From NCBI RefSeq assembly GCF_044324875.1, contig NZ_CP172185.1: a stretch of 64,000 nucleotides of DNA; one strand, given 5' to 3'. Position numbers and translations under genes: made by a program. Positions 12,501-28,733 of the stretch are shown here, in pieces. Every line of letters starts with the position of its first letter. Within the stretch, counting starts at the first letter, position 1. The notes below the pieces were generated by a model, which searched no databases, had not been told where the DNA came from, and was given only the letters and a program-made list of their open reading frames with translations. The DNA comes from Escherichia coli (GTDB lineage: Bacteria > Pseudomonadota > Gammaproteobacteria > Enterobacterales > Enterobacteriaceae).

Positions 12501-13284
12501 ATCTTCTTGCAGTAAAACGAATCTTCCCGACCATGATTAGCGGGCAGGAGCGTCTTGCCTGTATGGATGATGCCGCCAGGCTGCGCGATGCTCTCGGCGT
12601 ACGACTACCAGAGTCACTGCCAGAGATTTATTTGCACCGAGTCAGTTACCCGCTTCGCGACCTCTTTCTGCGCTATCTCCGGGCTCATGCTCTGGTCACG
12701 TCTGAACAACTGGCTCATGAGTTTAGTCTCGGTACTGCCATTGTCGAAGAGCAACTTCAGCAACTGCGCGAACAGGGGCTGGTGATGAATCTGCAACAAG
12801 ACATCTGGGTGAGCGATGAAGTATTTCGTCGTCTGCGTTTGCGCTCGCTGCAAGCCGCCAGAGAAGCGACACGTCCCGTTGCGGCCACGACCTATGCGCG
12901 ATTGCTGCTGGAACGTCAGGGCGTATTACCCGCCACCGATGGTAGCCCGGCACTCTTTGCCTCAACATCGCCAGGCGTTTATGAGGGCGTGGATGGCGTG
13001 ATGCGGGTGATCGAACAGCTTGCTGGCGTTGGTTTACCCGCCTCACTCTGGGAAAGCCAGATCCTGCCTGCCCGCGTACGCGACTATTCGCCAGAAATGC
13101 TCGATGAATTACTGGCAACCGGTGCGGTTATCTGGTCGGGGCAAAAAAAGCTGGGTGAAGATGACGGTCTGGTGGCACTGCATCTACAGGAATATGCCGC
13201 AGAATCGTTCACTCCCGCCGAAGCAGATCAGGCGAATCGTTCGGCGCTGCAGCAAGCGATAATCGCTGTTCTGGCTGACGGAGG
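9584..13284 (+). pseudogene. lhr: lhr (large ATP-dependent helicase) 5' portion: in-frame TAA at 11030-11032, then truncated by prophage insertion
   Basis: ORFs 9584..11032 and 11099..13297 are in the same frame, separated by a single TAA; Walker A GSGKT and DEVH helicase motifs; frame runs into the prophage left end and stops at 13295-13297. Confidence 0.85.
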
Positions 13285-13297
13285 TGATCAGACATGA

Positions 13298-13327
13298 GAT
13301 AAATGAAGGGGGATCCGTGAGATAAAT
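13298..13327. repeat. left-end terminal repeats (GAGATAAAT x2), putative transposase binding sites
   Basis: GATAAAT at 13298-13304 and 13321-13327, mirrored at the right end. Confidence 0.4.
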
Positions 13328-13480
13328 AACGAATTGGAGTGGGTTAACATGGGTTCTGGTGAACAGAACTGAAATTCTTTTCCGCTATACGATAGATAAG
13401 TCGGGCATTGAAATCATCCTTCCTGGCAACTTAGAATCGAGTTTGCTGAAACATGACCCGCAACAAAAAGGATGATTCCA

Positions 13481-13642
13481 ATGACTACTCAAAACAATAA
13501 GCATGATAGCCTGGATTACTCAGAAAAGCCCAAAAGCAAGCACATCGTGACGTTCGAGCGCGATTCCGGTAGAAAAGGAGAATCGTCTTCCTCTGCCAAT
13601 AAAACCACTATGCCGGCAGCCCCTGCCCCAGGGAAAAAATAA
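13481..13642 (+). CDS. hypothetical small hydrophilic protein (53 aa); may be spurious
   Basis: ATG with AAGGA 9 bp upstream; low-complexity Ser/Lys-rich product; convergent with the membrane-protein gene (3-bp gap). Confidence 0.25.
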   Translation: MTTQNNKHDSLDYSEKPKSKHIVTFERDSGRKGESSSSANKTTMPAAPAPGKK

Positions 13643-13645
13643 ACA

Positions 13646-14278
13646 TCATTCATCGTTCGTTGCACGAACGCGCCTGATCTCCACTCTGGCAATCTGATCT
13701 GCTGGAATATAGGTTGCCAGAGCTCCCCAGTACTTATCAACCACGCCTTTATACTCTTCCCATTCGTTACTGCCTGAAGGGCTGCTGTGCGTGACGTAAA
13801 GAACCATATCGCCTTTATTCCCCAGGGTAAACGGACCGTTAGGCCACTCTTCAAAGTTCCCTGGCAGCCGTGACATCATACCGGAACCATCGCGAAGAAT
13901 CACTCTGACCTCGGTAACGCTGAAGCCTGTTTGATCAAACATTGCCTGCCATGCTGAGCTGGTATCGTCAGACCATGAAATATCATTATTCCACAGTAAT
14001 CTGTACATCCATTTGCGACCGTACCTGCGCCACCACGCACCGCATGTAACGGCACACAGAAGTGCTGGTGGTGTTGCCAGCCAGGCATTCAGACCTGCCC
14101 ACATAACAGCCTGGTAAGCCATCATTGCTGTCAGGCCAAAAATCAGCGAAGAAAAAGTCACCTCAATGGGCTTGTGGTGATCCTTCAGTCCCACATTCGC
14201 AATAAAATACCCAATATAGCCACTGGTCAGGGTCACCAGTGTTGCCCATGGCAGATTTAACAACGAAACGTCAAACAT
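13646..14278 (-). CDS. prophage accessory membrane protein (about 3 TM helices plus ~120-aa soluble C-terminal domain), function unknown
   Basis: Start at MFDVSLLNL with GGGAGA SD 7 nt upstream; the longer ORF to 14356 would begin inside the terminator hairpin. Confidence 0.6.
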   Translation of the reverse strand: MFDVSLLNLPWATLVTLTSGYIGYFIANVGLKDHHKPIEVTFSSLIFGLTAMMAYQAVMWAGLNAWLATPPALLCAVTCGAWWRRYGRKWMYRLLWNNDISWSDDTSSAWQAMFDQTGFSVTEVRVILRDGSGMMSRLPGNFEEWPNGPFTLGNKGDMVLYVTHSSPSGSNEWEEYKGVVDKYWGALATYIPADQIARVEIRRVRATNDE

Positions 14279-14315
14279 ATTTTCTCCCTGCATCCTGAAT
14301 ACTAAAGAGAGAGCA

Positions 14316-14351
14316 TAAAAAAAGCACGGTAAGGGGTCTACCGTGCTTTTA
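14316..14351. terminator. bidirectional rho-independent terminator between early operon (mor) and left-end accessory gene
   Basis: A-run, 9-bp stem AGCACGGTA / TACCGTGCT with 7-nt loop, T-run. Confidence 0.55.
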
Positions 14352-14392
14352 TACAATAAGGAGATTTTTGAAAGGACTTTAACAAGCAGGAA

Positions 14393-14791
14393 TTATCTGG
14401 ATTTGTTAACGTCTTTCGTCTCCTCTGGCAGATCTTCATCAAACAACCTGCCCTGCATCCGATCCAGTTCTTCTTTTCTGACCCGCTTAACCACGCTGTA
14501 GACCCACTGAAGCGAAACACCAAACTTGCGGGCCAGTTCGTGGTGGTTGCGTCCGTTAAACTCCCTGAAGATTTCCCGGTCGCGCTGACTGACCTTCCAT
14601 ACCATGCCCATCGGGAAATAAACGTTTTGCCCGCCCCAGACCTGCATCATTCGGTTCGCGACGGCCTGACCAATCTGGTCGGCAATTGCGGGCTCAATAT
14701 CAATAATCTCGCGAACGGTCTCAGAGGTATGCTGTGCCAGCTCCACCAGGAGTTCCGGCCCTTTACTTCGAAACTGATTCAGGTCGCTCAT
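14393..14791 (-). CDS. mor: Mor-family middle/late transcription activator
   Basis: 132-aa ORF with the C-terminal segment FREFNGRNHHELARKFGVSLQWVYSVVKRVRK matching Mu Mor. Confidence 0.8.
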   Translation of the reverse strand: MSDLNQFRSKGPELLVELAQHTSETVREIIDIEPAIADQIGQAVANRMMQVWGGQNVYFPMGMVWKVSQRDREIFREFNGRNHHELARKFGVSLQWVYSVVKRVRKEELDRMQGRLFDEDLPEETKDVNKSR

Positions 14792-15254
14792 GTTTTACTC
14801 CCGCAGCTCTGTGCTGCCACTTCTTCAGTTTCTCAATAACACTGCTTGCCTGTTCAGTATTGAGCCAGCGCAGGGCGCTGATGCCCGTTTCCCGCTTGAT
14901 CCACCGCGCTAATGCATTTTCTGAACGGTCACGAACAATGCCGGCAGCAGCCATTTCAAGCCATAGCGCACGGATTTTCCTGGACTGCGGATGGTTATCC
15001 AGCGGTAAACCGGAGCTGGCTTTTCCGGCAGGCTTAACGCGAAAGCCTTTCCTTTTCATGGATTCCAGCACGCAGTTTAGTTGTGTGGTATCCATTCCTT
15101 TGGTTGAGGCTTTACCGGTCAGCCCCTGTAACATCTGGCGATAGGTGTCTTCATCCATACCCAGTTCATTACGGGCAATATGAATGAGCTGGATAAGACG
15201 TTGTTTAGTCATCATCGTTGCTCCTTTTACCTGCGCCACCGATATAATCGACAT
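14763..15254 (-). CDS. GemA/gp16-like protein (DUF1018)
   Basis: 163-aa ORF immediately upstream of mor as in Mu; family recognised from memory. Confidence 0.6.
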   Translation of the reverse strand: MSIISVAQVKGATMMTKQRLIQLIHIARNELGMDEDTYRQMLQGLTGKASTKGMDTTQLNCVLESMKRKGFRVKPAGKASSGLPLDNHPQSRKIRALWLEMAAAGIVRDRSENALARWIKRETGISALRWLNTEQASSVIEKLKKWQHRAAGVKHERPESVSK

Positions 15255-15420
15255 ATAAAGGAAGCGCCACAGGCCAGCACAGGAACATCACCGACCAGCT
15301 AATCCAGTAGCCGGCACCACTGTAACGTGAATAAAACCCTGAACGGCGGTGCAGTTCAGCAGTACACCAACCGACAAAACAATACCAGAACAGGGCACAT
15401 ACAACAGATTCAGCCGTCAT
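15205..15420 (-). CDS. small membrane protein (about 72 aa)
   Basis: ATG overlaps upstream stop (ATGACGGCTGA); G-rich SD; hydrophobic product. Confidence 0.4.
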   Translation of the reverse strand: MTAESVVCALFWYCFVGWCTAELHRRSGFYSRYSGAGYWISWSVMFLCWPVALPLYVDYIGGAGKRSNDDD

Positions 15421-15640
15421 TCTGAATATCCCCCCAACTGATATGAATATTACGGGCAGCAATGACAGGGTCGTTATTCCACCATGCACCTGACATGTAT
15501 TTTTCAACCTGTTCGCGTCCGGCAATAACACCAATTGTGATCCCCGGCCTGACGTTCTTAAAAAAGGCGCGGGCAAAAAGGTATCTGGCAGATATTCGGC
15601 AGGCTTTTAATTTCCGGCTGTTACCTGATAGCGTAATCAT
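15410..15640 (-). CDS. hypothetical early protein (76 aa)
   Basis: ATG with TGGAGG SD; start overlaps stop of upstream gene. Confidence 0.4.
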   Translation of the reverse strand: MITLSGNSRKLKACRISARYLFARAFFKNVRPGITIGVIAGREQVEKYMSGAWWNNDPVIAARNIHISWGDIQNDG

Positions 15641-16320
15641 CTGGCCTCCAGTTTCTGTTGTTCCTGCCCACTGACCGGGCGGTGCAGTCTGACGTTCTGC
15701 CCTTCACGAAACCCCGCATAGCGCGAGGCGTCGCCATTGCGGCTTCTTCCCGGTTTACGCGCCCTGGTGGTTTGCGTCTGCGGGTATTTATGTTCCAGCC
15801 ACTGCTGCATCAGTTCACGCTCATCATCGGTCAGGGCAAAGGACTGTATTTCACTGATAACGGCCAGCACCCAGCCTTCGGCAAACTGGTCTCCACGGCT
15901 GGTGCGGGTGGCGGTTTTTATTCTTTTGTTCTGTGCACTGATATACTGCTGACGCGCCTTTTTCAGCTGACGGGCCAGCACTTCCCAGGTGTATGCAGCC
16001 AGTGCCGCACGTTCCCGGTTGCCGTAGAACCCCACAGACGGATGCGTGCCGGGGTGAATGATGGAGTTAACACCAAATACCTCGCGGATGATGTTCATCA
16101 GGCCTGGCATGTAGCGCGGTGGACGGAGACTGCCTGTCGGCCAGTAGTGACTGATGGTTTCATCAATATCACTCATAGCAATGTCGGAATGTGTGATGCC
16201 GTGAACATCCATCAGTTTACGGGCTCGGCGCAGTGCCAGAGCGGCCTCGTGCGGGTTGCCGGATGCGGCCAGCGCCAGCAACTTTTTCAGTTTCTCAATG
16301 TGTTTATTCTGGTCTGTCAT
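15637..16320 (-). CDS. early protein with DUF2786-like N-terminus (IEKLKKLLALAASGNPHEAALALRRARKLM)
   Basis: Start at MTDQNK with GGAG upstream, overlapping upstream stop (ATGA); family assignment tentative. Confidence 0.5.
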   Translation of the reverse strand: MTDQNKHIEKLKKLLALAASGNPHEAALALRRARKLMDVHGITHSDIAMSDIDETISHYWPTGSLRPPRYMPGLMNIIREVFGVNSIIHPGTHPSVGFYGNRERAALAAYTWEVLARQLKKARQQYISAQNKRIKTATRTSRGDQFAEGWVLAVISEIQSFALTDDERELMQQWLEHKYPQTQTTRARKPGRSRNGDASRYAGFREGQNVRLHRPVSGQEQQKLEAR

Positions 16321-16532
16321 TGTTCTGTATCTCCGGTATTTTTCTGCCGTTTCCATGCCCGGACAGCGTCGGACAGCTCTTTCAGGCTGTATGCTGCTTT
16401 AAGCTTTTCCCATAACCACTGTGTTGTTATGTGCATCAGCAGGGCAGCCAGGGCTGCCCCCGCACTGAGGCATGTCGCCAGGCCAGTAAGAATCAGTATC
16501 CATGCGGTGATTTCCCTGAGTATGTCAGCCAT
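16317..16532 (-). CDS. small membrane protein (71 aa)
   Basis: Hydrophobic core ILILTGLATCLSAGAALAALL; translationally coupled to downstream gene. Confidence 0.45.
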   Translation of the reverse strand: MADILREITAWILILTGLATCLSAGAALAALLMHITTQWLWEKLKAAYSLKELSDAVRAWKRQKNTGDTEQ

Positions 16533-16546
16533 TGAATGCCTCCCGG

Positions 16547-16843
16547 TTACTCGTTCGTGTAAATCACGCCCAGTCGTGCAGCCAGACGTTCCAGTTTTTT
16601 CTGTTTGTGGAAGTCAATCAGCCGGTCCATCCCCTGAAGGCGCAATTGCTCTGTCATGATTTCCACGTCTGCCAGCTCTGCCGCGAGGTCGCTTTCGCTG
16701 CCCTGTCCGTTCAGATTGCGGGCAGCACTGGCCGCCAGTTCAGCGGCCTCTTCTGTCAGTTTCAGGGCCTGTGCGTCCGGCCCGAAACGCTGCAGGGCCA
16801 GACGGTAGAGGGCGGTGCGGGTGAGTATGGTGTTCCGTGTCAT
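16547..16843 (-). CDS. hypothetical early protein (98 aa)
   Basis: ORF in co-directional tight array of early genes. Confidence 0.45.
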   Translation of the reverse strand: MTRNTILTRTALYRLALQRFGPDAQALKLTEEAAELAASAARNLNGQGSESDLAAELADVEIMTEQLRLQGMDRLIDFHKQKKLERLAARLGVIYTNE

Positions 16844-16852
16844 GCCGCGCCC

Positions 16853-17125
16853 TCAGTGCTTCCGGCTGACGGTGATGTGCAGGCCGCCTTCTGCAGTGGT
16901 TTCCATCCGGTACGGCACCTCATGCTCTGCCGTGTGGGTGAGTGTGTTCATCAGTACCTGCAGGGCAGCCGCCTTTCCGTTGGTTGCCACAATGGCCTGT
17001 GTGGTCATGCTGATTAGCGCCGTCAGGACGTGCTTCACATCGGTGAGGTCGCGGCATTCACACTCGTTGACATAGTGTTCAACAAGGGTTCGGGTGCGCT
17101 GTCGTGCTTCCTGTGGGGTAATCAT
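16853..17125 (-). CDS. hypothetical early protein (90 aa)
   Basis: ORF in early gene array; stop overlaps next start. Confidence 0.45.
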   Translation of the reverse strand: MITPQEARQRTRTLVEHYVNECECRDLTDVKHVLTALISMTTQAIVATNGKAAALQVLMNTLTHTAEHEVPYRMETTAEGGLHITVSRKH

Positions 17126-17316
17126 TGCGAGTCCTCCCTGTCAGGGCGGGAGAATTCCATGACGGGCACGTCTGCCGAAAAATGCTGGCTGCAGTACGGG
17201 CAGACCAGGGTGACGCGTACCGCAGGGATGTGGTATTTACCGGACATCACGGCGATGGCGCTGTGAAAACGCAGGGCTGTTATATCCCTCTCGCACTGAA
17301 TACATTTAAATATCAT
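17122..17316 (-). CDS. small zinc-ribbon protein (CxxC...CxxC)
   Basis: 64-aa ORF with CIQC and CPYC pairs. Confidence 0.45.
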   Translation of the reverse strand: MIFKCIQCERDITALRFHSAIAVMSGKYHIPAVRVTLVCPYCSQHFSADVPVMEFSRPDREDSQ

Positions 17317-17413
17317 GATTTAATTCTCCTCTGTTTCCGGCGTGCAGAAGCCCGCGGCGCTGACGCCGGAATAAAAAAGAAAATGTTTTTATTAAATAAT
17401 TAACGTGGTGTGT

Positions 17414-17944
17414 TTACTGCACATCCTGCTCAAAAGGAATTATTGAAAAATCCTCAATGTCGCTTTTAATGGAAATACCGGGAATATTTTTCACGGCCTC
17501 TTTTTCATTCAGGATAGCGTCTTTATTTATTTCCTCTTTTACACGAATAAAGCGCTCAAGCCCCAGACGTCTCAGTAATTCAATAACATTATCCGCCCCA
17601 CGGATACTGACTGATGGCGGACGGTTTCGCCACTGCACCTCGCCGGTGGTAAGGTTAGCGAACTTCACCTTCCCGTTGCCGGTCAGTTCATCACGGTGCG
17701 CCTCACACCATGTCTGGATACCGGACTGCAGTTCGGCCATGCGTTTTTTCAGGCTCTCGGTGAGCGGGGCATAACGTGCGGTGATATCGCCAATGGCGTC
17801 ATTCATTTCTGTTTCAGCCCTGACCAGTTCACGTTGTGCGTCACCGAGTAGTCTGATTCCCTCAATGACCTCTTCGCGTGTCCCTGGTACCCAGAGTGCC
17901 GCTGCGGCCTTGATACGTTTTGCCCCTTTTGTACTTTTTGCCAT
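17414..17944 (-). CDS. gam: Gam-like host-nuclease inhibitor (Mu Gam family)
   Basis: 176-aa ORF aligns along its length with recalled Mu Gam (TEMNDAI, WCEA.RDELT, RPPSVSIRG, GLERFIR, EDFSIIPFEQ). Confidence 0.85.
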   Translation of the reverse strand: MAKSTKGAKRIKAAAALWVPGTREEVIEGIRLLGDAQRELVRAETEMNDAIGDITARYAPLTESLKKRMAELQSGIQTWCEAHRDELTGNGKVKFANLTTGEVQWRNRPPSVSIRGADNVIELLRRLGLERFIRVKEEINKDAILNEKEAVKNIPGISIKSDIEDFSIIPFEQDVQ

Positions 17945-17971
17945 ATTTTATGATTTCTCCGGTTGTGCTGA

Positions 17972-18241
17972 TTACCACAAAGATTCCGGCCACACGACGC
18001 GACAGCCGTGCAGTTCGAAAACGCCCTGACGGAAATATCCCCTGTGGTCATGTCCGGTATACAGATAACAGGCCTTTCCCTGCTCAAGCATGCGCATGCA
18101 ATGCGCACTCCGGGAAACGCGGATGACAGGTTTGTTACCCCTGATGGTGATGCTTTGTACATCCGTGTTCGTCGCCTTAAGCGCCATAATGGCTGACTGC
18201 ACTTTGCTGATTTGCTGGTTGATACCTGTGGTGGATTTCAT
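17972..18241 (-). CDS. hypothetical early protein at the kil position (89 aa)
   Basis: Sits between MuB-like and gam-like genes, where kil lies in Mu; no sequence assignment. Confidence 0.4.
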   Translation of the reverse strand: MKSTTGINQQISKVQSAIMALKATNTDVQSITIRGNKPVIRVSRSAHCMRMLEQGKACYLYTGHDHRGYFRQGVFELHGCRVVWPESLW

Positions 18242-18243
18242 TA

Positions 18244-19410
18244 TTAAACTCCTTTGACAACGTCAGCGTTGACCTGTGGAACCCCGATTTCAGCGGCCAG
18301 ATTCATGGCGGCTATTACCAGGTTACTGACGGCCAGCGGATACAGCAGGCTGACCATATTTTTACGATGACTTCCCGGATTGCTCAGGCGGGCACGTATG
18401 GCATCCACTGCGCTGGCGTCCATAATGTCCGTCAGTTGTTTACCGGCCCGTTGCAGTTTGAACGTCAGAAATTCTTCAAGGTTATTGTCCAGAGGCAGAA
18501 GTTCGACCACCTCACAGCGCTGAACGACTTCACGGACTTCCATATTGCGTTCAGACAGTTTTGTCGCCAGTTCCGGCTGGCCAATCAGCACGATGGACAG
18601 CAGTTTTTTGAAACCGGACTCCAGCTCAAAAAAGCGTTTGAGGTGTTTCAGTGTCGGAATGGGCAGACTGTGGGCCTCCTCAATCACCAGAACGTGGCTG
18701 AACCCCGCCTGGCTGCTGTCTTTCAGGACGCGATGCAACTGGCGAAAGCGGGCGTCCTGACTGCGTCTGATGCTTTCCAGTGGTGCGATGGTACTGATAA
18801 TGGCTTCGGCAATAGCTGCTGCCTTCAGGGTTTTCCCTTTCACATCGTTGTCTTCCATAGCGATGATGTATGGCTCGATAACAATTACCGGCGCATTCTC
18901 GCGGTTAATACGTTCAGTCAGGTCGCGGCGCAGCGTGGATTTACCCGCACCGGACTCACCGATGACGGCCATAAACCCACCATGACGGGCTGTCTGGTAC
19001 AGCGCCTCACGCACGTAGCGAATGTCCGGGGTGGTGAACACATCATCAGAACCCTGCATGGCTTCATCGGCGAACGGGTCACGGAAAAGACCAAACGCTT
19101 TTTTGGTTGCTGGAAATAACACCTGTTTTTTGAGTAACATATTCTCTTCCTCACTGAGGCTCGTTTTATCTGTGGTACCCGCTGTACGGGGCGTGGCCGC
19201 GCCCTGTACAGCATCAAAACTCTTCGTTGTATCAATCCCCTGACTTTCCAGCCAGGACGCAAGACGCCGGCGCACTTCTCCGGGGCTGGTGCGGGGCCAC
19301 GCGTTATGATTCACAATCTGGGCCAGCGTGGCCTCAGAAACATCGACAGCTCTCGCCGCCACCGCCTGTGGAATACGGGCCTCTTTCAGTTGCTGCTTCA
19401 GTACCAGCAT
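18244..19410 (-). CDS. MuB-like transposition ATPase (AAA+)
   Basis: Walker A GESGAGKST; ATG at 19408-19410 preceded by GAGGAGGG SD; directly downstream of transposase. Confidence 0.75.
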   Translation of the reverse strand: MLVLKQQLKEARIPQAVAARAVDVSEATLAQIVNHNAWPRTSPGEVRRRLASWLESQGIDTTKSFDAVQGAATPRTAGTTDKTSLSEEENMLLKKQVLFPATKKAFGLFRDPFADEAMQGSDDVFTTPDIRYVREALYQTARHGGFMAVIGESGAGKSTLRRDLTERINRENAPVIVIEPYIIAMEDNDVKGKTLKAAAIAEAIISTIAPLESIRRSQDARFRQLHRVLKDSSQAGFSHVLVIEEAHSLPIPTLKHLKRFFELESGFKKLLSIVLIGQPELATKLSERNMEVREVVQRCEVVELLPLDNNLEEFLTFKLQRAGKQLTDIMDASAVDAIRARLSNPGSHRKNMVSLLYPLAVSNLVIAAMNLAAEIGVPQVNADVVKGV

Positions 19411-19420
19411 GTTTCCCTCC

Positions 19421-21190
19421 TCAGTTGCCGTTAACAATGCTGATAACGCTGCTGCGGGCCGGCGTGGTCAGCGTGGCCATGACTTCATCCAGTGCGGCTT
19501 CCGGTACGCCGTCCGGGTACTGTGCTGTTAACTGGCGGTAATGTTCCGGCGTCCAGGTCAGGCCGTCGGCGCTGAACTTATCGCGCAGGGCTTTCGCGGC
19601 CTCCACATGAGTCATGGGACGCTGTTCAGTGCGCGGTCCGCGTACGTCAGAGGCCTGACCACGCTTCGGTATACAGGCCGGAAGTGTGGCGTCATCAATA
19701 TGTTTATACGGGTCAAGCCGCCCGCCGAACGGCAGCGCCTTCGCCTTGCGTGCGGCAGCTGCATCTGCGGCGTTGTCTGTACCGGTGACCAGCGCTTCGG
19801 TTTCTTTTGCCGCCATCTGCGCCGGGGTTTCCGGCAGGGCTTTGTAACTTTCGCCAAATACCGCCGCGCCTTCAGCAAAGCCAAACTCGTTCTTTCTGAC
19901 CTCTTCGACCAGGAAGAACGTCTCGTGGCCGTCCTCACCGGTCAGAACCACCTGTGCCACATCGCTGCGCCACGGGTTACGGGTAATCATCAGTTTTTCA
20001 CCGACCAGTACGCCCGGTACCGTTGATACGTCAAATTCAGTGCCCCGGAACGAGACACGAAGTTTTGGCGTGACTTTGCGGAGTTCTGGTGCCGCCACAG
20101 CCAGTTCACGACATACCTCAACGGAAGGCGCTTTTTTCAGCTGCTCAGCAGTAATCTTCAGCCAGATATCCGTGCGGGTTTTACCGTGGCGGCTGTGAAC
20201 AGCCGTGGCGTTAAAGTGGCTGCGCCATTTCGCGGCCAGCGCGTTGAGTTCTTCCAGACTGTGAACCGGCCGGAACTTCAGACCCGGCTCCAGCTTGCGT
20301 TCGATAATGTCACGCGCCTTTTCCACCTGTCCGGTGGCGCGGGCGTTATGCGGCTTGTGCGCTATCAGGTCGATGCCCAGTGAGCGGCACATGTTTTTCG
20401 TCATACCCGCGGTGTTTGCCGAGCCGGGGTCGAGATAGAGTATTTTTGGCACGCCGTGCAGCACGTCTGCGCCGCCACGCTCCTGCATGGCGTTGATAAG
20501 CACAGAACACAGGTTCTCACCGGATTCCGCACCCGTCACATACTCAACGTAAATCCAGCCGCTGGCATGGTCGGTAATCTCGTAACTCCACACGCGGTCA
20601 CTGGCGATACGGGCAAGGTTAGCGGGCTTGTTTTTGTAGAATTTCGCGCTGTCCATCACCTGCAGCCCTTTATGTCCATTGCTCAGGTAGTAAAGCGTGC
20701 AGAGTGAGGCGTCAATCTGCCAGACATGATTGGGGTGCAGACTGGCCACTTCGGTATGCGGTGCAGGGGCATCCAGTTGTTCCGGGTGCAGGCCATAGTT
20801 ACGCAGGGCACGACTGATGGCATCTTCGGACAACGGGAAAAACTCACCGGTGGTTTCATCTGTTCTGCCTGCGGAGATAAAGCCGTTAGCCCGCAGGGTT
20901 TCCACTGCATCCGCGATGGAATAGAGACGCTTACCGTTCTTGCGGGTGGCCTCACGTAGTGTGGCAGATATCAGCGCGGCTTCGTCGCGGGTCAGGGTGC
21001 TGCGTCCGGCATCGGCGCGTTTTTTGCGTTTATCAGTCACAGAGACCTCCTTCAGCCTGCGCAGCAGAGTGGCGCGGGACATGCCAAGTTCAGCACAGGC
21101 AGCGTCGTATATTGCACCGCGTTTACCATGCCCCGCATTACGTGCCGCGCGGGCTGTTTCAACAAGTTTTTCAGTCAGTGCCGGGGTCAT
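19421..21190 (-). CDS. DDE transposase (Mu A-like function, rve-type catalytic core with N-terminal HTH)
   Basis: 589-aa ORF; HTH RATLLRRLKEV; HVWQIDASLC core; position upstream of MuB-like gene. Confidence 0.8.
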   Translation of the reverse strand: MTPALTEKLVETARAARNAGHGKRGAIYDAACAELGMSRATLLRRLKEVSVTDKRKKRADAGRSTLTRDEAALISATLREATRKNGKRLYSIADAVETLRANGFISAGRTDETTGEFFPLSEDAISRALRNYGLHPEQLDAPAPHTEVASLHPNHVWQIDASLCTLYYLSNGHKGLQVMDSAKFYKNKPANLARIASDRVWSYEITDHASGWIYVEYVTGAESGENLCSVLINAMQERGGADVLHGVPKILYLDPGSANTAGMTKNMCRSLGIDLIAHKPHNARATGQVEKARDIIERKLEPGLKFRPVHSLEELNALAAKWRSHFNATAVHSRHGKTRTDIWLKITAEQLKKAPSVEVCRELAVAAPELRKVTPKLRVSFRGTEFDVSTVPGVLVGEKLMITRNPWRSDVAQVVLTGEDGHETFFLVEEVRKNEFGFAEGAAVFGESYKALPETPAQMAAKETEALVTGTDNAADAAAARKAKALPFGGRLDPYKHIDDATLPACIPKRGQASDVRGPRTEQRPMTHVEAAKALRDKFSADGLTWTPEHYRQLTAQYPDGVPEAALDEVMATLTTPARSSVISIVNGN

Positions 21191-21205
21191 AGCTTGTCTT
21201 CCCTG

Positions 21206-21523
21206 TTATCCGATTCTGGCGGCAATTTTTCTGGCACGGTCGCGCAGGGTTTCGCCATCGCAGGTTTTCACCACGTTATTTACCGGTTGCGGCGCAACTG
21301 CCGGGCGCAATGCTGACTGATGCTGCAGACGTCTTATCTGCTGCATCAGCATCACTTCCATCGTCAGTACAAACGGATGCGCCTCCTGTGCGGGTACGCA
21401 GATTTCACCGGAAGGTGTCACCACGCGGAAACCCTGCACCATCTCCGGCAGCAGATTACACAGTGCGTGCCCCAGTGCCTCCGGGCTGTCCATCAGGATA
21501 TTTTGTGTGTTATCCGTGTTCAT
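21206..21523 (-). CDS. hypothetical early protein (105 aa)
   Basis: ORF between ner-like and transposase genes. Confidence 0.4.
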   Translation of the reverse strand: MNTDNTQNILMDSPEALGHALCNLLPEMVQGFRVVTPSGEICVPAQEAHPFVLTMEVMLMQQIRRLQHQSALRPAVAPQPVNNVVKTCDGETLRDRARKIAARIG

Positions 21524-22440
21524 TACTGCATGCCCTCCGGTCGGTTGATTTCAGGCTCCGGTTCGGTCAGCCATGCGGGGACATCGTTACCCGATGGTGC
21601 GGCATCAAGGTCGAACGTCTCACGCAATGCATGAACACTGCGTTCAATCTGGCAGACCAGACCGGCCATGAAATCTCTGGGGGTATCAATCATGTTTTTA
21701 CTGCAGTATTCACACAGGGTTTCAAAGGCACCGGAGAGCCGGACGGCGATGGCAGATTCCGCCTCAACCGCTAATGCGGTCACTTCCGCCCGCAGCTTCT
21801 TCACCTCTTCATCAGGCTCAGGCGGTTGAATACGGGATTTCTTCTCCAGTTTTGTGGCCAGTTCGTTGATTTTTTCGTCCTTTCCGGCAAGCACCTGTTG
21901 CTGAGCTGCGTTAGTTTCGCGCGCTTCACGCAGGGCCTGGCGAAGTTCACGTACTGACATGCGATCAACATCATCAAGCGTCAGGCCGGCAACTGTGCCG
22001 CCGTCGGCCAGTTCGGCAAGGTCTTCATCGTCTTCAGCAACAAGTTCAAATAATTTTGCCTTACCCAAAAGCGACAACGTTGTCGCTTTTGGCTCTAGTT
22101 TTGGTGAAAGGTATTTCAAAGATGCTTTCATCATTCGTTGTGCTGCGCGCACGTGCAAACCAAGTTGTTCTTCTACAATTCCAACAAAGTCCCCGTGTGG
22201 CTCATTTTCTTTTAAGATGATCAGCCGTTTACCCGCTTCCAGCATAGATTCAGCACTCTGCGCCATATAAAAACGTGCTTCGTGAACGATGCGATCACGT
22301 TCATAAGGCAGTCCATCACCAAACTGCTGCATGATCTCCATGCGATGCTGTGTCATGGCATTCAGGCTGACGTTGAGATCATCCGACAGCGGTACCTCGG
22401 CGTTCAGTTCAGTGTTAACCGGTGATTTGGTGCGTCCCAT
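21523..22440 (-). CDS. hypothetical early protein (305 aa, acidic coiled-coil region)
   Basis: ORF between ner-like and transposase genes; no confident family assignment. Confidence 0.45.
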   Translation of the reverse strand: MGRTKSPVNTELNAEVPLSDDLNVSLNAMTQHRMEIMQQFGDGLPYERDRIVHEARFYMAQSAESMLEAGKRLIILKENEPHGDFVGIVEEQLGLHVRAAQRMMKASLKYLSPKLEPKATTLSLLGKAKLFELVAEDDEDLAELADGGTVAGLTLDDVDRMSVRELRQALREARETNAAQQQVLAGKDEKINELATKLEKKSRIQPPEPDEEVKKLRAEVTALAVEAESAIAVRLSGAFETLCEYCSKNMIDTPRDFMAGLVCQIERSVHALRETFDLDAAPSGNDVPAWLTEPEPEINRPEGMQ

Positions 22441-22450
22441 TGATTACTCC

Positions 22451-22759
22451 TTACAAACGACTACCTGAAATGACACGTTGGTTGATTTCGTTAATGCGAT
22501 CCTGTGCACGTGCCATCTCGTTACTGTGGGCCATGGCGATCTGCAGCAACTGGATGCCCGGTGCGAAACGCCCGTTTTCCAGTTTCAGGGCCAGTCCTTC
22601 TTCAATGAGGGTGTTGAGTGCCCGGTTGATGTTTGCCGGTGACTCGTGCAGTGCTGCCGCCAGTTCACCATTGGAAATACCGTTCAGGGCATGACCGCGC
22701 AGCGCTTTGAGTACCCGGAGGATGCGACTGCCGGAGCTTGAAACATTCGTCTTACTCAT
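22451..22759 (-). CDS. winged-helix DNA-binding protein (about 102 aa)
   Basis: HTH-like segment ILRVLKALRGHALNGISNGELAAAL; start at MSKT has the better SD spacing. Confidence 0.45.
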   Translation of the reverse strand: MSKTNVSSSGSRILRVLKALRGHALNGISNGELAAALHESPANINRALNTLIEEGLALKLENGRFAPGIQLLQIAMAHSNEMARAQDRINEINQRVISGSRL

Positions 22760-22811
22760 CTGCATACCTCTTTTGCGATATGTGATAACCTTTTACAAAG
22801 AATCAAAATAT

Positions 22812-23000
22812 TCAGGCTGCCTGAGCTGTTGATTTCAGCCCCAGTTTCACGGCGATTTCATGGGATTTACCGTAACGTGCTTTGCTCTGCCCATTGAGAA
22901 CGCGGTATACCTCATTGCGGTTGTAGCCGTTTTCTTCTGCCCAGCGGGTGAAAGTGATCCCGCGCTGGCGGAAGAGAGCTTTGACTTGTTCTGCAGTCAT
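22812..23000 (-). CDS. ner: Ner-like small DNA-binding protein (Cro-equivalent)
   Basis: 62-aa ORF with AAGGAGA SD, divergent from the repressor; Ner-like HTH pattern. Confidence 0.55.
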   Translation of the reverse strand: MTAEQVKALFRQRGITFTRWAEENGYNRNEVYRVLNGQSKARYGKSHEIAVKLGLKSTAQAA

Positions 23001-23100
23001 CGTTGTCTCCTTTGTTGATGCAATGATGTTTGCCTTATGTGTGATAGATTATGGTGCAGATTATCTCACCAGTCAACTTAAAGAGTGCAGAAAAACTCAC
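23001..23100. promoter_or_regulatory. divergent early control region between ner and repressor (candidate operators)
   Basis: 100-bp AT-rich spacer containing the direct repeat AGATTAT twice (GATAGATTATGGTGCAGATTATCTC). Confidence 0.35.
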
Positions 23101-23439
23101 ATGATCGGGTTACGTATTAAAGAAGAAAGAGAGCGTCTATCTCTTACACAGCAAGGGTTGGCTGATGCTATCGGTGTGGCAAAGAGAACTTTTATTGATT
23201 GGGAAAAAGATCGCACTTCTCCTACTGCAGTGCAGTTATCTGCACTATCAGAAATCGGTGTAGATGTTTTGTATGTAGTTACTGGGGTGCGGAGTCAGCC
23301 TGTTGTTGCACCTTATATGTCACAAGAAAAGAAAGAGTTAATGGATGCATTCGACGAGATGAGCCCCGAACAACGGAGGGCAATTCTTGAGGTCGGCAAA
23401 GTCTTCATTCAACCCAAACCAAGCAAACTCGCAGGCTGA
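23101..23439 (+). CDS. XRE-family HTH repressor (c-like)
   Basis: Internal start MIGLRIKEERERLSLTQQGLADAIGVAKRTFIDWEKDRTSP, a classic XRE HTH; divergent from ner. Confidence 0.6.
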   Translation: MIGLRIKEERERLSLTQQGLADAIGVAKRTFIDWEKDRTSPTAVQLSALSEIGVDVLYVVTGVRSQPVVAPYMSQEKKELMDAFDEMSPEQRRAILEVGKVFIQPKPSKLAG

Positions 23440-23525
23440 TTCTGACCTGGACAGAAAGGACAGGTGGTTGATCTGGATGCTTTCAGAAAACGCCGTCAGT
23501 AGCATGGCAGAAATCGGCGGGCTTA

Positions 23526-23548
23526 CCGGAAAGCACTGTACTTTCCGG
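23526..23548. terminator. bidirectional terminator between convergent repressor and dam genes
   Basis: Stem CCGGAAA / TTTCCGG with 9-nt loop followed by T-rich tract. Confidence 0.5.
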
Positions 23549-23557
23549 TTATGGCTT

Positions 23558-24322
23558 TTAGAAATTGCAGATCACCAGCTCACGGCGTGGAGTTGATTTG
23601 CCTGCCAGACTGTAGTTGATGTTCACTGTCTGTATGTTCAGTCCAGTGAACACCTCGCGCATCTGCGGGATGTCGTTCACCGAAATTATCATCTTTCCTC
23701 TGATGCACCGGGCCAGCTCTGCCAGCCGCGAGTAGTTCCCTTCAGGAAAATCCACACCATAGCCTTCTGTACCCAGATACGGCGGGTCACAGTAGAACAG
23801 CGTGTGCGGACGGTCATAGCGCTCAATGCACTGTTGCCAGTCCATGTGTTCTATCACCGTTCTGGAAAGCCGCAGGTGTGCCGCTGACAGTTCTTCCTCG
23901 ATACGCAGCAGGTTGAAGCGTGGCGGGGATGTGGTGGAGGTGCCGAAGCTGTGCTCTGCCACCTTGCCGCCAAACGCCTGCTTCTGGAGGTAGTAGAACC
24001 GTGCTGCACGCTGGATATCCGTCAGTGTTTCTGTCGGGGTGATCTGCAGCCATTTGTAGATCTGCCGGCTGACCAGCGCCCATTTGAACTGGCGGACAAA
24101 TTCTTCCAGATGATGTTTTACCACCCGATACAGATTTACCAGTTCACCATTGATATCGTTAATGACTTCGAGCTTACCAGGTGTCTTAAGAAAATAGAGC
24201 GCTGCTGCGCCGCAGAACGGCTCCACGTAACATTCATGCGCCGGAAACAGCGGCAGGATGTGTTTTGCCAGGCGACGTTTGCCACCAATCCATGGAACGA
24301 TGGGTAATGTCTGCATTTTCAT
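23558..24322 (-). CDS. Dam-type N6-adenine DNA methyltransferase (D12 class)
   Basis: 254-aa ORF with DPPY catalytic motif and N-terminal FCGAAALYF SAM-binding motif. Confidence 0.8.
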   Translation of the reverse strand: MKMQTLPIVPWIGGKRRLAKHILPLFPAHECYVEPFCGAAALYFLKTPGKLEVINDINGELVNLYRVVKHHLEEFVRQFKWALVSRQIYKWLQITPTETLTDIQRAARFYYLQKQAFGGKVAEHSFGTSTTSPPRFNLLRIEEELSAAHLRLSRTVIEHMDWQQCIERYDRPHTLFYCDPPYLGTEGYGVDFPEGNYSRLAELARCIRGKMIISVNDIPQMREVFTGLNIQTVNINYSLAGKSTPRRELVICNF

Positions 24323-24514
24323 AATCTGTAAGCCTTTTACAATTATTAAAAATATGGCAGGCTAGTCTGGTCTCGCGAGACTGACTGAACCCCGGTCGGC
24401 TCACAGCGCATTCCTGTGGGACGATGGCCAGCCCGGTGGGTCCGAAGCACCGGGCTGGTCGTTCTTTCATGATGCGGCAGGGATGAAGTGATTTCTGTTA
24501 ATGTGGTTTAGGGA

Positions 24515-24730
24515 TTATCCGGGGCGATTTTCTGACCTTATCTGGTCCAGGGCATAAGTGATCCCTTCTGCAAAAACAGAAGTATCAAACTGCTTTTGTA
24601 TTTCCTGAAAATGAACAGTGGCACGACAGACACTCAGTTCTCCGCGATGTAACCGGATAATATCTTCCAGAACATTGTTCACTGCTTCGGCACGGCGCTG
24701 ATGTTCTGTTAACGTTAATCGGGGATTCAT
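24515..24730 (-). CDS. hypothetical 71-aa protein upstream of dam
   Basis: ATG with AAGGAG SD 8 nt upstream; no recognisable motif. Confidence 0.5.
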   Translation of the reverse strand: MNPRLTLTEHQRRAEAVNNVLEDIIRLHRGELSVCRATVHFQEIQKQFDTSVFAEGITYALDQIRSENRPG

Positions 24731-25107
24731 GATGCACTCCTTAAATGATGATTTTTATGTACTCACCGGCAAAATATTCTGCCGATTACTGAACACGCAT
24801 CCGGCTCCTCAGGTTTTGATTTATTCTGGTTTTTTCGATATCCCGGACCAGGTTGATCACGACAGAAAAAGTGCCGGTATTTTATTGATACGCTGATATG
24901 GCTTCGGGATAACAGCTATATTCGTTACTCTCAGTTGCTGGCTGTGGGAGCGGCTGATGTCGTCCTCACGGAAAAAACGCTCTGTCTGCTCAATGCCATG
25001 CCGACCTTTCTGCAGCCCCGGCCCGTACCATTTAAAGAGTCACTTCTGGATGCAGTAAAAACCGGTGAAAATGCAGTCATCGCTGAATGCGTATCCCGGA
25101 TTATGCG

Positions 25108-25656
25108 TTACGTGTTTAATGAACGTAAGTGAGGTTTATCCGCTGTCTGCATAATCCCGATAGCCAGTGCGAGGGGAAGCAATTCCGGGGAAACTCTTTC
25201 AAACAGCGATTCCCATTCTCCTCTCGCCATCACTCTGTCCAGCCCGCCCTCCAGCTGCATTTCAGCAATCTTCCTGATTTCCCGGAACAACGCCGCTTTG
25301 ATCTCTTCATGCTCAGCTTTATTTTCCGGTGTCAGAATGTATTCGTCGAAGAACCGGGGAGGCTGGTTAACGGGGGGCATGTTCACCGGGATGTGTTCCT
25401 GTATCCCGTACTCCGGGGCTGAAAAACATTTTGTTGTCTGACCGGTGAGTTTGCGTAACACCTTCATGAGTTGCTCCTGAAGCAGCTCATTCGTCCGACA
25501 GATACGCTCGTCGTCCACAACTGCGGCATCGACAATGACGCTTTTTCCAAATTCCTTTTTCACCATCTCTTTTATACGCGTCAGAACGTAACTTTTACCG
25601 CTGCCTACAGGCCCGGACACTCTGACGGTGATGGTCGGCTTCGGTGTGACTGTCAT
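25108..25656 (-). CDS. small P-loop NTPase (about 182 aa), function unknown
   Basis: Start MTVTPKPT with AAGGAG SD; Walker A GPVGSGKS and hhhhDD Walker B-like VIVDAAVVDDE. Confidence 0.6.
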   Translation of the reverse strand: MTVTPKPTITVRVSGPVGSGKSYVLTRIKEMVKKEFGKSVIVDAAVVDDERICRTNELLQEQLMKVLRKLTGQTTKCFSAPEYGIQEHIPVNMPPVNQPPRFFDEYILTPENKAEHEEIKAALFREIRKIAEMQLEGGLDRVMARGEWESLFERVSPELLPLALAIGIMQTADKPHLRSLNT

Positions 25657-25725
25657 TCTGTATCTCCTTTGTGAGTGATCCAGCGTGTATTCTGCATACC
25701 CCGAACACGCCTCTCTCTTAACGCG

Positions 25726-25736
25726 CTTTAAAATCC
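25726..25736 (+). promoter_or_regulatory. late-promoter-like motif GCTTTAAAATC about 60 bp upstream of first late gene
   Basis: One of four related motifs at matching distances from late-operon starts. Confidence 0.35.
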
Positions 25737-25787
25737 TCCGCGCCACGCTTTTGCCATGCTGTCTCCACACAACAAGGAGACATTTTC

Positions 25788-26138
25788 ATGAAACCATTCA
25801 CTTCCCTTATCGTTGACGTACAAAAAACCCGCCTGCGTGGATGGCTTGTTGCGGCCGTGCTGCTGCTCCTCATCATCGCGCTGGTCTCACCCCAGCAGTT
25901 GCCGGTGGTGGTGTACAAGCTCTCTCTCATCTCCCTCGCCGCCGTGCTCGGCTACTGGCTGGACCGCTCACTCTTCCCGAAGGCCCGTCCGGGGCAGTAC
26001 CTGAAGCATGACGAGCGCCTCATGGCTGAGGGGCGCTGGCCCGTACAGACCGGCCTTCACCTGGTGTTTTCTGCTGCGTTAATCCGCCGTGCACTGATTG
26101 TTGCAGCTGTCTGTCTGGCTGTTGCGATGGGGCTTTAA
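25788..26138 (+). CDS. putative holin / lysis membrane protein
   Basis: 116-aa ORF with two or three TM segments immediately upstream of the endolysin. Confidence 0.5.
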   Translation: MKPFTSLIVDVQKTRLRGWLVAAVLLLLIIALVSPQQLPVVVYKLSLISLAAVLGYWLDRSLFPKARPGQYLKHDERLMAEGRWPVQTGLHLVFSAALIRRALIVAAVCLAVAMGL

Positions 26139-26140
26139 TC

Positions 26141-26875
26141 ATGAACTGGCCACAGAGCACCTGGATTGTATGCATGTCCCTGAAACTGGCTTTCGAAGCC
26201 TTTCTGGTCTTCATCAGAACCGAACGCCTGTCAGTCCGTGTCGGGACCTTTCTGGTTCATATGGCATGGGTATTCTTTGTCGCAATGTTGCTCTGGTGTG
26301 GCGGCTTCTTCAGTCAGGCCCGCGCAGCGCAGCCTCCGCAGGCTGCGCTGCAGTATCGCGATGATGTGATCCGTAATGCCCGGCTTGAATGGGGGCTGTC
26401 TGCGCCGGTGGCCGATTTCGCCGCGCAACTGCATCAGGAAAGCGGCTGGCGGACTGATGCGGTCTCGCCGGTGGGCGCTCAGGGGCTGGCGCAGTTTATG
26501 CCCGCCACCGCTGACTGGATAAGCCAGTTGATGCCGGCGTTGAGCAGTCGTGAGCCGTTTAATCCGGCATGGGCCATCCGGGCGCTGGTCAGCTATGACC
26601 GCTGGCTGTGGCAGCGCATCAGCGCCGCCAGTGACTGCGAGCGTATGGCCATGACACTGTCGGGCTATAACGGTGGTCTGGGTTGGGTACAACGGGACAG
26701 GCGGCTCGCATCACAGAAAGGTCTGGACAGCACCCGCTGGTTCGGACATGTCGCCACGGTGAATGCCGGACGCAATGCTGCCAGCTGGCGGGAGAACCGC
26801 CATTATCCGCAGCGCATCCTGCACGAACTGGCCCCCCGTTATCTGACATGGGGGGGCGGCAGCTGTGTGGACTAA
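26141..26875 (+). CDS. lytic transglycosylase endolysin (SLT domain), probable signal-anchor (SAR) type
   Basis: SLT catalytic region HQESGWR...GAQGLAQFMPATA; hydrophobic N-terminal segment. Confidence 0.75.
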   Translation: MNWPQSTWIVCMSLKLAFEAFLVFIRTERLSVRVGTFLVHMAWVFFVAMLLWCGGFFSQARAAQPPQAALQYRDDVIRNARLEWGLSAPVADFAAQLHQESGWRTDAVSPVGAQGLAQFMPATADWISQLMPALSSREPFNPAWAIRALVSYDRWLWQRISAASDCERMAMTLSGYNGGLGWVQRDRRLASQKGLDSTRWFGHVATVNAGRNAASWRENRHYPQRILHELAPRYLTWGGGSCVD

Positions 26876-27167
26876 CCTGCTAAAAAATCTGCCGTGGCGC
26901 AGTCTGCTGCTGGCAGTGCTCATAAATGCTTTTCTGATTGGACTTTATTACCTGGGCTACAAAAGTGCAAAATGGCATCTGAATCGATCGCAGTTTGGCA
27001 TTCGAATCGATCATGATTTGGCATCCATCTCCGATCACAGTTTGGCATCACAATCGATCACGATTTGGCATGCTTCCGATCATTGATTGGCATCCTGCCA
27101 GTCACTCCGGGAATTAACTCTTTTCACCACAGTCTCCATTGCCGTGTTTAAACCAGTGGAGACGTCA

Positions 27168-28733
27168 ATGTCCAGAAAGAGAAAATCCAGGAGCACTATG
27201 GAAACCTGTTTTAAGATCCTTCAGCTCAAGTTCGACAAGAAGCTGACTAACCGTTGTATCGGACTGACGTTACACATCAGCGCCTCAACCGTTTTTGAGG
27301 TTCTTGCCCGCTTCAAAGCCTCTTCTCTGTCATGGCCATTACCTGCTGATATATCCCATGACACGCTGGAGAAACTCATTTTTCCGCCCAAAGACACCTT
27401 TGCATCAGAGCTTGTAATGCCTGACATGTTGTACTTCGATACGGAAATGAGAAAACCAGGTGTGACGCGGCAACTGTTGTGGATGGAATACAAGGCACAG
27501 GCGGGTAACAAAGCGATGGGATACTCGCACTTCTGCCGTTGCTACCGGGAGTGGAAAAAAACGCGACGTCTCTCCATGCGCCAGGAGCATCGTGCCGGCG
27601 AAAAGCTTTTTATCGACTTCTGTGGTCCTACGGTTCCTGTTATTAATCCGGACACCGGTGAGATACGCCGCGTGGCAATCTTCGTGGCCGTAATGGGGGC
27701 GTCCAACTATACCTACGTTGAAGCGTGCGAAGGTCAGGACATGATGTCATGGTTAAATGCCCACAGCCGTTGCCTGACCTTCCTGGGCGGCGTACCGAAG
27801 CTGCTCATCCCCGATAACCTCAGAAGCGCAGTGAAAAAGGCCGATCGATATGAGCCTGTCATCAACGACAGTTATCAGGCACTGGCTGAGCACTATGGCA
27901 CGGTTATCATCCCGGCCCGACCACGCAAACCTAAAGATAAACCAAAAGCAGAAAACGGCGTCCTCATCGTTGAACGATGGCTTCTTGCCCGCATCCGTAA
28001 TGAAACCTTCCACACGCTCAGGGCGCTGAATGCGCGCCTTAGGGAGTTACTGACAGACATGAATAACCGGCCAATGAAGGGGTACGGCAATCAAACCCGT
28101 GCAGAACGCTTCCGCATACTGGATGCGCCAGCACTCTCTCCGCTGCCTCTGGCACCTTATGAATACACGGAATACAAAGCTGTGAAGGTTGGCCCTGACT
28201 ACCACGTTGAATATGCCCGTCACTGGTACTCCGTTCCACACGAACTGGTCGGTCAGCGTCTGTCACTGAAGGCGGGGCAGTCGGTGGTACAGCTCTGGCA
28301 CAAGGGGCAGTGTGTGGCGCAACATCCGCGCAGCACACATGAATATAAACACACAACCAATCCGCTTCACATGCCAGAGCGCCACCGGCAGCACGGGACA
28401 TGGACACCGGAACGCCTGATCGAGCAGGGAAAACGTACGGGCCCGTCCACAGGCCGGGTGGTTGAATCCATGCTGAAGGCAAAACCCCATCCGGAACTGG
28501 CTTATCGTGCAGTTCTGGGGCTGCTGGCACTTCAGAAAAAATACGGCCCGGAACGGCTGGAAAAGGCCTGTTACGTTGCCCTGCACTATAACGCCCCTGA
28601 CAGACGCTTTATCGACAATCTGCTGCGTCACCATCGGGAGAACCTGGAGCTTCCATTATCCCGCCAGGGCGAACAACATCCGGCATATGCTTCAGAGCAT
28701 GAAAACCTGCGTGGTCCGGGCTACTACCACTGA
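27168..28733 (+). CDS. istA: IS21-family transposase IstA
   Basis: N-terminal HTH plus DDE core (FIDFCGP ... IPDNLRS ... VERW); start uncertain (27087 TTG to 27198 ATG). Confidence 0.8.
   Translation: MSRKRKSRSTMETCFKILQLKFDKKLTNRCIGLTLHISASTVFEVLARFKASSLSWPLPADISHDTLEKLIFPPKDTFASELVMPDMLYFDTEMRKPGVTRQLLWMEYKAQAGNKAMGYSHFCRCYREWKKTRRLSMRQEHRAGEKLFIDFCGPTVPVINPDTGEIRRVAIFVAVMGASNYTYVEACEGQDMMSWLNAHSRCLTFLGGVPKLLIPDNLRSAVKKADRYEPVINDSYQALAEHYGTVIIPARPRKPKDKPKAENGVLIVERWLLARIRNETFHTLRALNARLRELLTDMNNRPMKGYGNQTRAERFRILDAPALSPLPLAPYEYTEYKAVKVGPDYHVEYARHWYSVPHELVGQRLSLKAGQSVVQLWHKGQCVAQHPRSTHEYKHTTNPLHMPERHRQHGTWTPERLIEQGKRTGPSTGRVVESMLKAKPHPELAYRAVLGLLALQKKYGPERLEKACYVALHYNAPDRRFIDNLLRHHRENLELPLSRQGEQHPAYASEHENLRGPGYYH

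Follow-up and report, generated by a model that had tools for sequence, protein, structure and literature searches.

A transposable prophage with the BcepMu/B3 two-cluster gene layout in the lhr gene of Escherichia coli

In phage Mu (genus Muvirus), all genes but c run rightward, a cascade of Mor and then C operates, and com and mom lie at the right end. The present analysis concerned a transposable prophage in a 64,000-nt stretch of Escherichia coli DNA (assembly GCF_044324875.1, contig NZ_CP172185.1), which is called the window below and to which all coordinates refer. According to Lavigne et al. (PMC2771037), BcepMu is composed of two gene clusters, an early cluster on the bottom strand that ends with Mor at the left end and a late cluster on the top strand. 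Lysogeny control is placed there at the internal interface (genes 16/17), followed by the lysis cassette; the transposase is of the Tn552-IS1604 type, unrelated to MuA, and related prophages are mentioned outside Burkholderia (PMC2771037). For BcepMu-related prophages with an Rve integrase core, 5'-TG...CA-3' termini are given in PMC2628397, and BcepMu-like prophages are routinely reported in Salmonella (e.g. PMC7302871). The B3-like phages are described in PMC5977238 as siphoviruses with B3-type transposition proteins and an early operon inverted relative to Mu and D3112. As far as these sources go, the two-cluster layout is already known, being the standard published plan of BcepMu/B3-type transposable phages, and is common in E. 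coli.

When the coding-strand open reading frames (ORFs) of the window were compared in gene order by tblastn with Mu (NC_000929), BcepMu (NC_005882) and the first 16 kb of B3, the prophage followed the plan of BcepMu and B3. Seven early genes, 28 late genes and the repressor matched BcepMu, all collinear and on the same strand (36/36, Kendall tau 1.0). The matches to B3, comprising eight early genes, seven late genes and the repressor, were likewise all on the same strand (16/16, tau 1.0). Against Mu, opposite-strand matches came from three early genes (mor, gemA, and gam), and same-strand matches from six late ones (TerL, portal, F, G, a tail-fibre fragment, and gin), with a tau of 0.83. The ORF listing gave an unbroken minus-strand gene block at 14393-23000, and beginning at 25788 the plus strand carried the genes for holin, endolysin, terminase, head, tail, tail fibre, and Gin. 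The annotated records of BcepMu and B3 have Mor leftmost on the bottom strand, then GemA, ATPase, transposase, DUF3102, and regulator genes, a divergent helix-turn-helix (HTH)/repressor pair at about 9-10 kb, and then accessory genes, holin, endolysin, Rz, and terminase. The window was therefore read, with a probability of about 0.93, as holding a transposable prophage of the BcepMu/B3 lineage with the standard two-cluster plan, inserted into lhr by transposition. Within that lineage, its sequence appears to place it in the enterobacterial branch nearest phage PhiKM.

A preliminary description of the window had claimed that, in comparison with Mu, the early block was turned round with respect to the late genes, lying on the minus strand while the late operon runs on the plus strand to gin at the right end, and had pointed to a similar layout in BcepMu-type phages. 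Each of these points was borne out by the comparisons above. It had also allowed that the orientation might simply be the norm of a known group of close relatives, as it is in the BcepMu/B3 phages; the earlier interpretation was therefore correct, and the feature is not novel.

The extent of the prophage was defined by the following features.

13285..53653, the whole transposable prophage, 40,369 bp (37,730 bp without an insertion sequence, IS), inside host lhr
11099-13284 and 53654-54575, host lhr (a helicase gene), cut in two by the prophage
13279..13284, target-site duplication CGGAGG, left copy, 6 bp, read from the sequence
53654..53659, target-site duplication CGGAGG, right copy, 6 bp, read from the sequence
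13285..13330, plus strand, left terminus, TGATCAGACA-TGAGATAAAT-(13 nt)-TGAGATAAAT
53608..53653, minus strand, right terminus, given as the reverse complement, TGATGCGCCG-CGCGATAAAT-(13 nt)-TGCGATAAAT

The left boundary was set at 13285, where similarity to other E. coli genomes sets in, and on the right the host gene lhr picked up again at 53653/4. The empty site GCTGA-CGGAGG-AGCC (GTTCTGGCTGACGGAGGAGCCTGGTTTGC) was present once, uninterrupted, in strain GN25. Since the 6-bp CGGAGG lay on both sides and the empty site was intact in GN25, the prophage was delimited as 13285-53653 in lhr. At both ends, positions 11-20 and 34-43 were occupied by 10-bp repeats with the consensus YGMGATAWWT, putative binding sites of the transposase. 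The ends of BcepMu read TGAAGAGAGG TGAGATATTT (13 nt) CGCGATATTT and TGAAGCGCGG CGCGATATTT (13 nt) CGCGATAAAT, so that the terminal architecture was identical at each end, with TGA...TCA and the 10-bp repeats in the same places. The 5'-TG...CA-3' termini with repeated subterminal motifs are thus a trait shared with BcepMu. In other E. coli genomes, the identical phage end adjoined kefF, tdh, flgA, flgJ, gudD, clbG, and further genes, as expected for transposition, and insertion at many sites with a short target duplication is also a BcepMu-like trait. A further mark of such phages is virion DNA that has variable host sequence at its flanks, a sign of replicative transposition and headful packaging; the sequence analysed here is that of a prophage.

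The early operon, the control region, and the junction with the late genes contained the following features.

13646..14278, minus strand, extra 210-aa ORF, phrog_12870 (E 1e-133, residues 27-236 of the longest ORF)
14320..14350, minus strand, terminator-like hairpin directly past mor, a 13-pair stem and a T run
14393..14791, minus strand, mor (Mor/C-family late activator), 56% identity to BcepMu gp1 and 31% to Mu Mor, phrog_532
14763..15254, minus strand, gemA-like gene, 44% identity to BcepMu gp2 and 36% to Mu gp16
between the gemA-like gene and gam, minus strand, several small ORFs, including a MazG-like ORF at 16547-16843
17414..17944, minus strand, gam (Mu-type DNA end-protection protein), 61.5% identity to Mu Gam, phrog_491
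17972-18241, minus strand, 89-aa ORF
18244..19437, minus strand, transposition ATPase, AAA+, ExeA-like AAA_22 (Pfam), 59% identity to BcepMu gp8, in the position of MuB
19421..21190, minus strand, transposase of the BcepMu/B3 type, 589 aa, DDE (rve), 68% identity to BcepMu gp9 and 56% to B3
between the transposase and DUF3102 genes, minus strand, 105-aa ORF
21523..22440, minus strand, DUF3102 protein, homologous to BcepMu gp10 and B3 ORF13
22451..22765, minus strand, small winged HTH regulator, homologous to BcepMu gp12 and B3 ORF14
22812..23000, minus strand, first early gene, 62-aa HTH protein in the Ner position, TIGR04111 "BcepMu gp16 family" (98 bits against a cutoff of 34)
23048..23076, minus strand, leftward sigma-70-like promoter TTGACT-17-CATAAT, a consensus match only
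23098..23439, plus strand, XRE/cI-type repressor in the c position, Pfam HTH_3, DicA/RstR-like, 37% identity to BcepMu gp17
23525..23549, plus strand, hairpin between the convergent repressor and methylase genes, common to both
23558..25770, minus strand, accessory module of three genes at the early/late junction
23558-24322, minus strand, Dam-type (type II-like) orphan methyltransferase
24515-24730, minus strand, 71-aa ORF, phrog_4490
25108-25770, minus strand, 220-aa ORF, phrog_3787, with a P-loop-like motif GPVGSGKS

The early genes were closely packed or overlapping down to mor. Queries with Mu Mor and with Mu C both matched 14393-14791 alone, the sole Mor/C gene in the window, and the regulatory cascade appears, from the gene content, to have a single Mor/C activator. 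The hairpin at 14350-14320 is the probable end of the early operon. Mor had been said to abut the left end of the prophage; this is only roughly so, as about 1.1 kb, holding the terminator and the 210-aa ORF, lay between it and 13285. This ORF gave no PADLOC match and no tblastn match in BcepMu or Mu, and may be a moron. A small plus-strand ORF (13472-13642) and a promoter-like site (13408-13437) also lay near the left end. Gam had no tblastn match in BcepMu.

The transposase, of a family found in 69 phage records, was 98.8% identical to that of PhiKM, and a Pfam search found the rve core only and none of the Mu-specific transposase domains. The pairing of an rve transposase unrelated to MuA with an ExeA-like AAA ATPase is a trait of BcepMu. 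When the transposase, the ATPase, the ner-position protein, and the repressor were compared by BLASTP with Mu A, B, Ner, and c, nothing significant was found. The Mu gene names proposed for the early block thus need correction: mor, gemA, and gam are homologous to their Mu namesakes, whereas c, ner, the transposase, and the MuB-like gene correspond by position only. Likewise, the positions are analogous, but the winged HTH regulator, DUF3102, and 105-aa genes intervene between the ner-position gene and the transposase. The likeness of the early block to the Mu order is thus largely one of analogous positions, with Mor, GemA, and Gam as the only Mu homologues there.

The gp16-family HTH gene was divergent from the XRE repressor, as in BcepMu. 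The longest ORF of the repressor spans 22948-23439, but the gene probably starts at 23098, the beginning of the HTH domain. In the control region of about 97 bp between the two genes, the TTGACT-17-CATAAT site is a candidate early promoter. The claim that c is internal and faces the late operon held for its internal position and plus strand; the hairpin at 23525-23549 and the three minus-strand genes, however, intervene. An accessory module had been proposed at this early/late junction, and accessory genes lie there as they do in BcepMu (gp18-20) and B3 (ORF20-23), with a content that varies among the window phage, KP12_2, BcepMu, and B3. A PADLOC search of the accessory ORFs returned methyltransferase matches and very weak P-loop matches only. 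A sigma-70 consensus scan for a late promoter at 25.1-25.8 kb found nothing convincing, which fits an activator-dependent promoter and proves nothing.

The late side of the prophage contained the following features.

25788..26875, plus strand, start of the late cluster, holin and SLT-type endolysin
26966..29604, plus strand, IS21-family element (istA, istB), interrupting an Rz-like lysis gene
30792..51798, plus strand, terminase, head, P2-like tail genes, and tail fibre, collinear with BcepMu gp27-52
51329..52939, invertible tail-fibre segment, with 229-nt inverted repeats at 51329-51557 and 52711-52939
~53003..53575, plus strand, Gin-type serine invertase at the right end, 77% identity to Mu Gin

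As in BcepMu, a cassette of holin, SLT endolysin, and Rz lay past the junction and was followed by Mu-like head and P2-like tail genes. The parts of a contractile tail were present, namely the sheath (76% identity to BcepMu gp39), the tube, and a P2-like baseplate. The IS21-family element, of which istA (27087-28733) and istB (ending at 29505) both scored above the NCBIfam cutoffs, was bordered by a short AAAG/AAAAG duplication and is no part of the phage layout. It split the Rz-like gene into parts at 26865... and ...30161, and this copy of the prophage, with its Rz-like gene interrupted, may be defective in lysis. On the minus strand, the invertible segment encoded a second, alternative C-terminus for the fibre (52419-52901) and had an ORF resembling an assembly protein (51805-52419); in the present orientation, no ORF of at least 110 aa was found on the plus strand past the fibre gene. 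The tail-fibre gene (572 aa; region 50080-52939) had several internal repeats resembling a short part of Mu S. No other gene of the BcepMu-type backbone came anywhere near as close to Mu as Gam (61.5%) and Gin (77%), which suggests module exchange with Mu-like phages in enterobacteria.

The internal divergent region, with the XRE repressor on one side and the gp16-family HTH gene on the other, would drive a leftward early operon of regulators, DUF3102, rve transposase, AAA+ ATPase, Gam, GemA, and Mor, stopping at the left-end terminator. Across the junction, the lysis, head, tail, and gin genes would be read in the rightward direction. The Mu Mor/C family provides the analogy for expecting activation of late promoters in trans. 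By this analogy and that of BcepMu, the single Mor/C protein, encoded last in the early transcript, would activate the late promoters in trans. Because such a protein would act in trans, the coupling of early to late expression would need no read-through, and the relative orientation of the blocks would then be free of functional cost. Variable accessory genes would find a slot in the interval from c to the lysis genes.

Several observations weigh against assignment to the BcepMu/B3 lineage with the plan outlined above. When compared with BcepMu by blastn, 9.9 of the 37.7 kb (~26%) aligned, at ~68% identity, and such patchy DNA similarity would make the prophage a family-level relative and not a close congener. 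By an ICTV-style criterion, a genus is delimited at ~70% nucleotide identity across the genome. The high genome-wide nucleotide identity to BcepMu required for a strict Bcepmuvirus was not found; NCBI taxonomy nevertheless assigns to Bcepmuvirus the phage PhiKM, whose identity to the prophage of the window is 94%. The window phage also differs from BcepMu in having a Mu-type Gam, Gin, and the invertible tail-fibre segment, BcepMu being described as having no tail-fibre inversion system (PMC2771037). The direction of transcription, the Mor-dependence of the late promoters, and the function of the terminator were deduced from the DNA sequence, and no Mor-dependent late promoter was located. The literature support for the BcepMu/B3 layout comes from papers that cite the original descriptions.

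These differences bear on a further proposal, in which the enterobacterial BcepMu-like prophages (PhiKM, KP12_2, and that of the window) form a distinct genus-level mosaic that lacks a formal description, combining the BcepMu/B3 early module and termini with a Mu-derived Gam and Gin/G-segment, and in which the junction between c and the lysis genes is a conserved cargo slot; its contents, in the window the orphan Dam-type methylase and the protein with the P-loop motif, would have a so far unrecognised defence role for host or phage. This proposal is speculative and was considered rather unlikely. If it were true, the orientation of the layout would still be a known trait.

A recent inversion of the early block, in this prophage or in the E. 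coli lineage, from an ancestor oriented like Mu could have come about, for example, through Gin or through recombination between inverted repeats. The phage does encode a Gin that is 77% identical to that of Mu, and the Mu homologues Mor, GemA, and Gam are in the inverted orientation. However, the orientation is common to Burkholderia phage BcepMu, Pseudomonas phage B3, and Klebsiella phage KP12_2. No flanking inverted repeats of at least 18 nt were found, but only imperfect 22-27-nt matches within genes, and the early core genes (A, B, and immunity) are not homologues of those of Mu. A recent, lineage-specific inversion was ruled out by the shared orientation across Burkholderia, Pseudomonas, Klebsiella, and Escherichia phages together with the lack of flanking repeats, and was judged very improbable. 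That phages of four different host genera have this orientation in common rules out both an assembly error and a recent event, and makes the orientation older than the E. coli lineage. "Inverted" does not denote a demonstrated event, as the transposition and immunity genes lack homology to those of Mu: "block-inverted" is a description, and the layout is a trait of the lineage, not a rearrangement in the window genome.

Membership in the genus of Mu, D108, and SfMu, with a rearranged left end, was considered highly improbable. In its favour were the E. coli host, the Gin gene and invertible (G) segment that mark Muvirus, and the resemblance of Gam, Gin, TerL, portal, F, and G to their Mu counterparts (27-77% identity). 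Homologues of Mu A, B, c, Ner, Kil, C, Com, and Mom were not found in the window phage, the tail genes matched the P2-like tail genes of BcepMu and not those of Mu, and blastn against Mu DNA gave four short segments only. The other marks of Muvirus, namely MuA/MuB, c/Ner at the left end, and a rightward layout with the Mor-C cascade and com/mom, were likewise absent. Membership was rejected, as neither BLASTP nor tblastn gave homologues of Mu A, B, c, and Ner.

Contiguity was scored in 5,426 complete E. coli genomes, requiring at least 80% of 20500-27050 to be present as one contiguous place. This segment, with the transposase on one side, the endolysin on the other, and the control region and accessory genes in between, was contiguous in 477 genomes and was present at 100% identity in strain LH10-b-1, a lysogen without the IS; the phage type was found in ~9% of the genomes. 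A misassembly, which had been named beforehand as a possible refutation, or a pair of neighbouring elements not forming one phage, had no evidence in its favour. An IS21-family element does lie inside the prophage, IS copies can misjoin short-read assemblies, and the exact lhr/prophage and prophage/IS junctions were each reproduced in 0 of the 5,426 genomes. A misassembled or two-element origin was dismissed as having a negligible chance, given the 477-genome contiguity of the transposase-to-endolysin junction, the same order in the PhiKM and KP12_2 records and in the virion-derived genomes of BcepMu and B3, the single 6-bp duplication and matching inverted termini that enclose the entire unit with an empty site intact elsewhere, and the location of the IS, which has its own short duplication, among the lysis genes and 3.5 kb rightward of c at the early/late junction.

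The assignment to the BcepMu/B3 lineage carries little weight as a discovery, and its practical value is for annotation. The Mu names A, B, c, and ner and the label "rearranged Mu" should be avoided for such prophages, because they represent a different family in their transposase, ATPase, and immunity genes. With the exact ends, the target duplication, and the IS insertion defined, the prophage can be delimited correctly.

The nearest phage was Escherichia phage PhiKM (PQ738613), with 94.7% identity over 87% of the query, or 94% identity over 34 of the 37.7 kb. Klebsiella phage KP12 clone KP12_2 (OM835952) was 84% identical over 27.8 kb. Both are essentially the same phage type as the window prophage, and in both the early and late blocks are oriented to each other as they are in the window. 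The KP12_2 record is the reverse complement as a whole, with the relative block orientation kept, and differs in its junction accessory genes. When compared with these phages and related prophages, the IS21-family insertion and the lhr site were peculiar to the window copy. For PhiKM, the public record is a partial, permuted assembly in which the tape-measure gene contains a sequencing gap and the true phage ends are not seen; it labels the single Mor/C gene "protein C" and the ATPase "Eha protein".

When compared with BcepMu, the window phage shared the leftward series of Mor, GemA, ATPase, rve transposase, DUF3102, small regulator, and gp16-family HTH genes, the divergent XRE repressor, the accessory slot followed by holin, SLT endolysin, and Rz, and the Mu-like terminase and head genes with P2-like tail genes. 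It differed in having the Dam-type methylase in the junction and the extra ORF between the left end and mor, and the right-end acyltransferase gp53 of BcepMu had no tblastn match in the window. Pseudomonas phage B3 (genus Beetrevirus) had the same early order and strand, including the inverted early operon with B3-type transposition proteins. The identities to B3 were 55% for the ATPase, 56% for the transposase, 52% for DUF3102, 56% for the regulator, and 71% for the gp16-family HTH protein, and the divergent repressor was again followed by accessory genes, holin, endolysin, and Rz. The tail genes of the window phage, in contrast to the siphovirus tail of the B3-like phages, were of the P2-like contractile type of BcepMu.

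The window phage resembled Mu in its transposable way of life, inserting at random and duplicating a short target, in its homologous Mor, GemA, Gam, TerL, portal, F, G, and Gin, in the position of gin at the right end, and in a functionally analogous order inside the early operon. It differed from Mu in that the early operon pointed the opposite way with respect to the late genes, and in its control region, which was internal, about 10 kb from the left end, whereas the Mu repressor lies at the left end. Furthermore, one Mor/C regulator takes the place of the Mor-then-C cascade of Mu, and the tail is P2-like, matching the tail genes of BcepMu.

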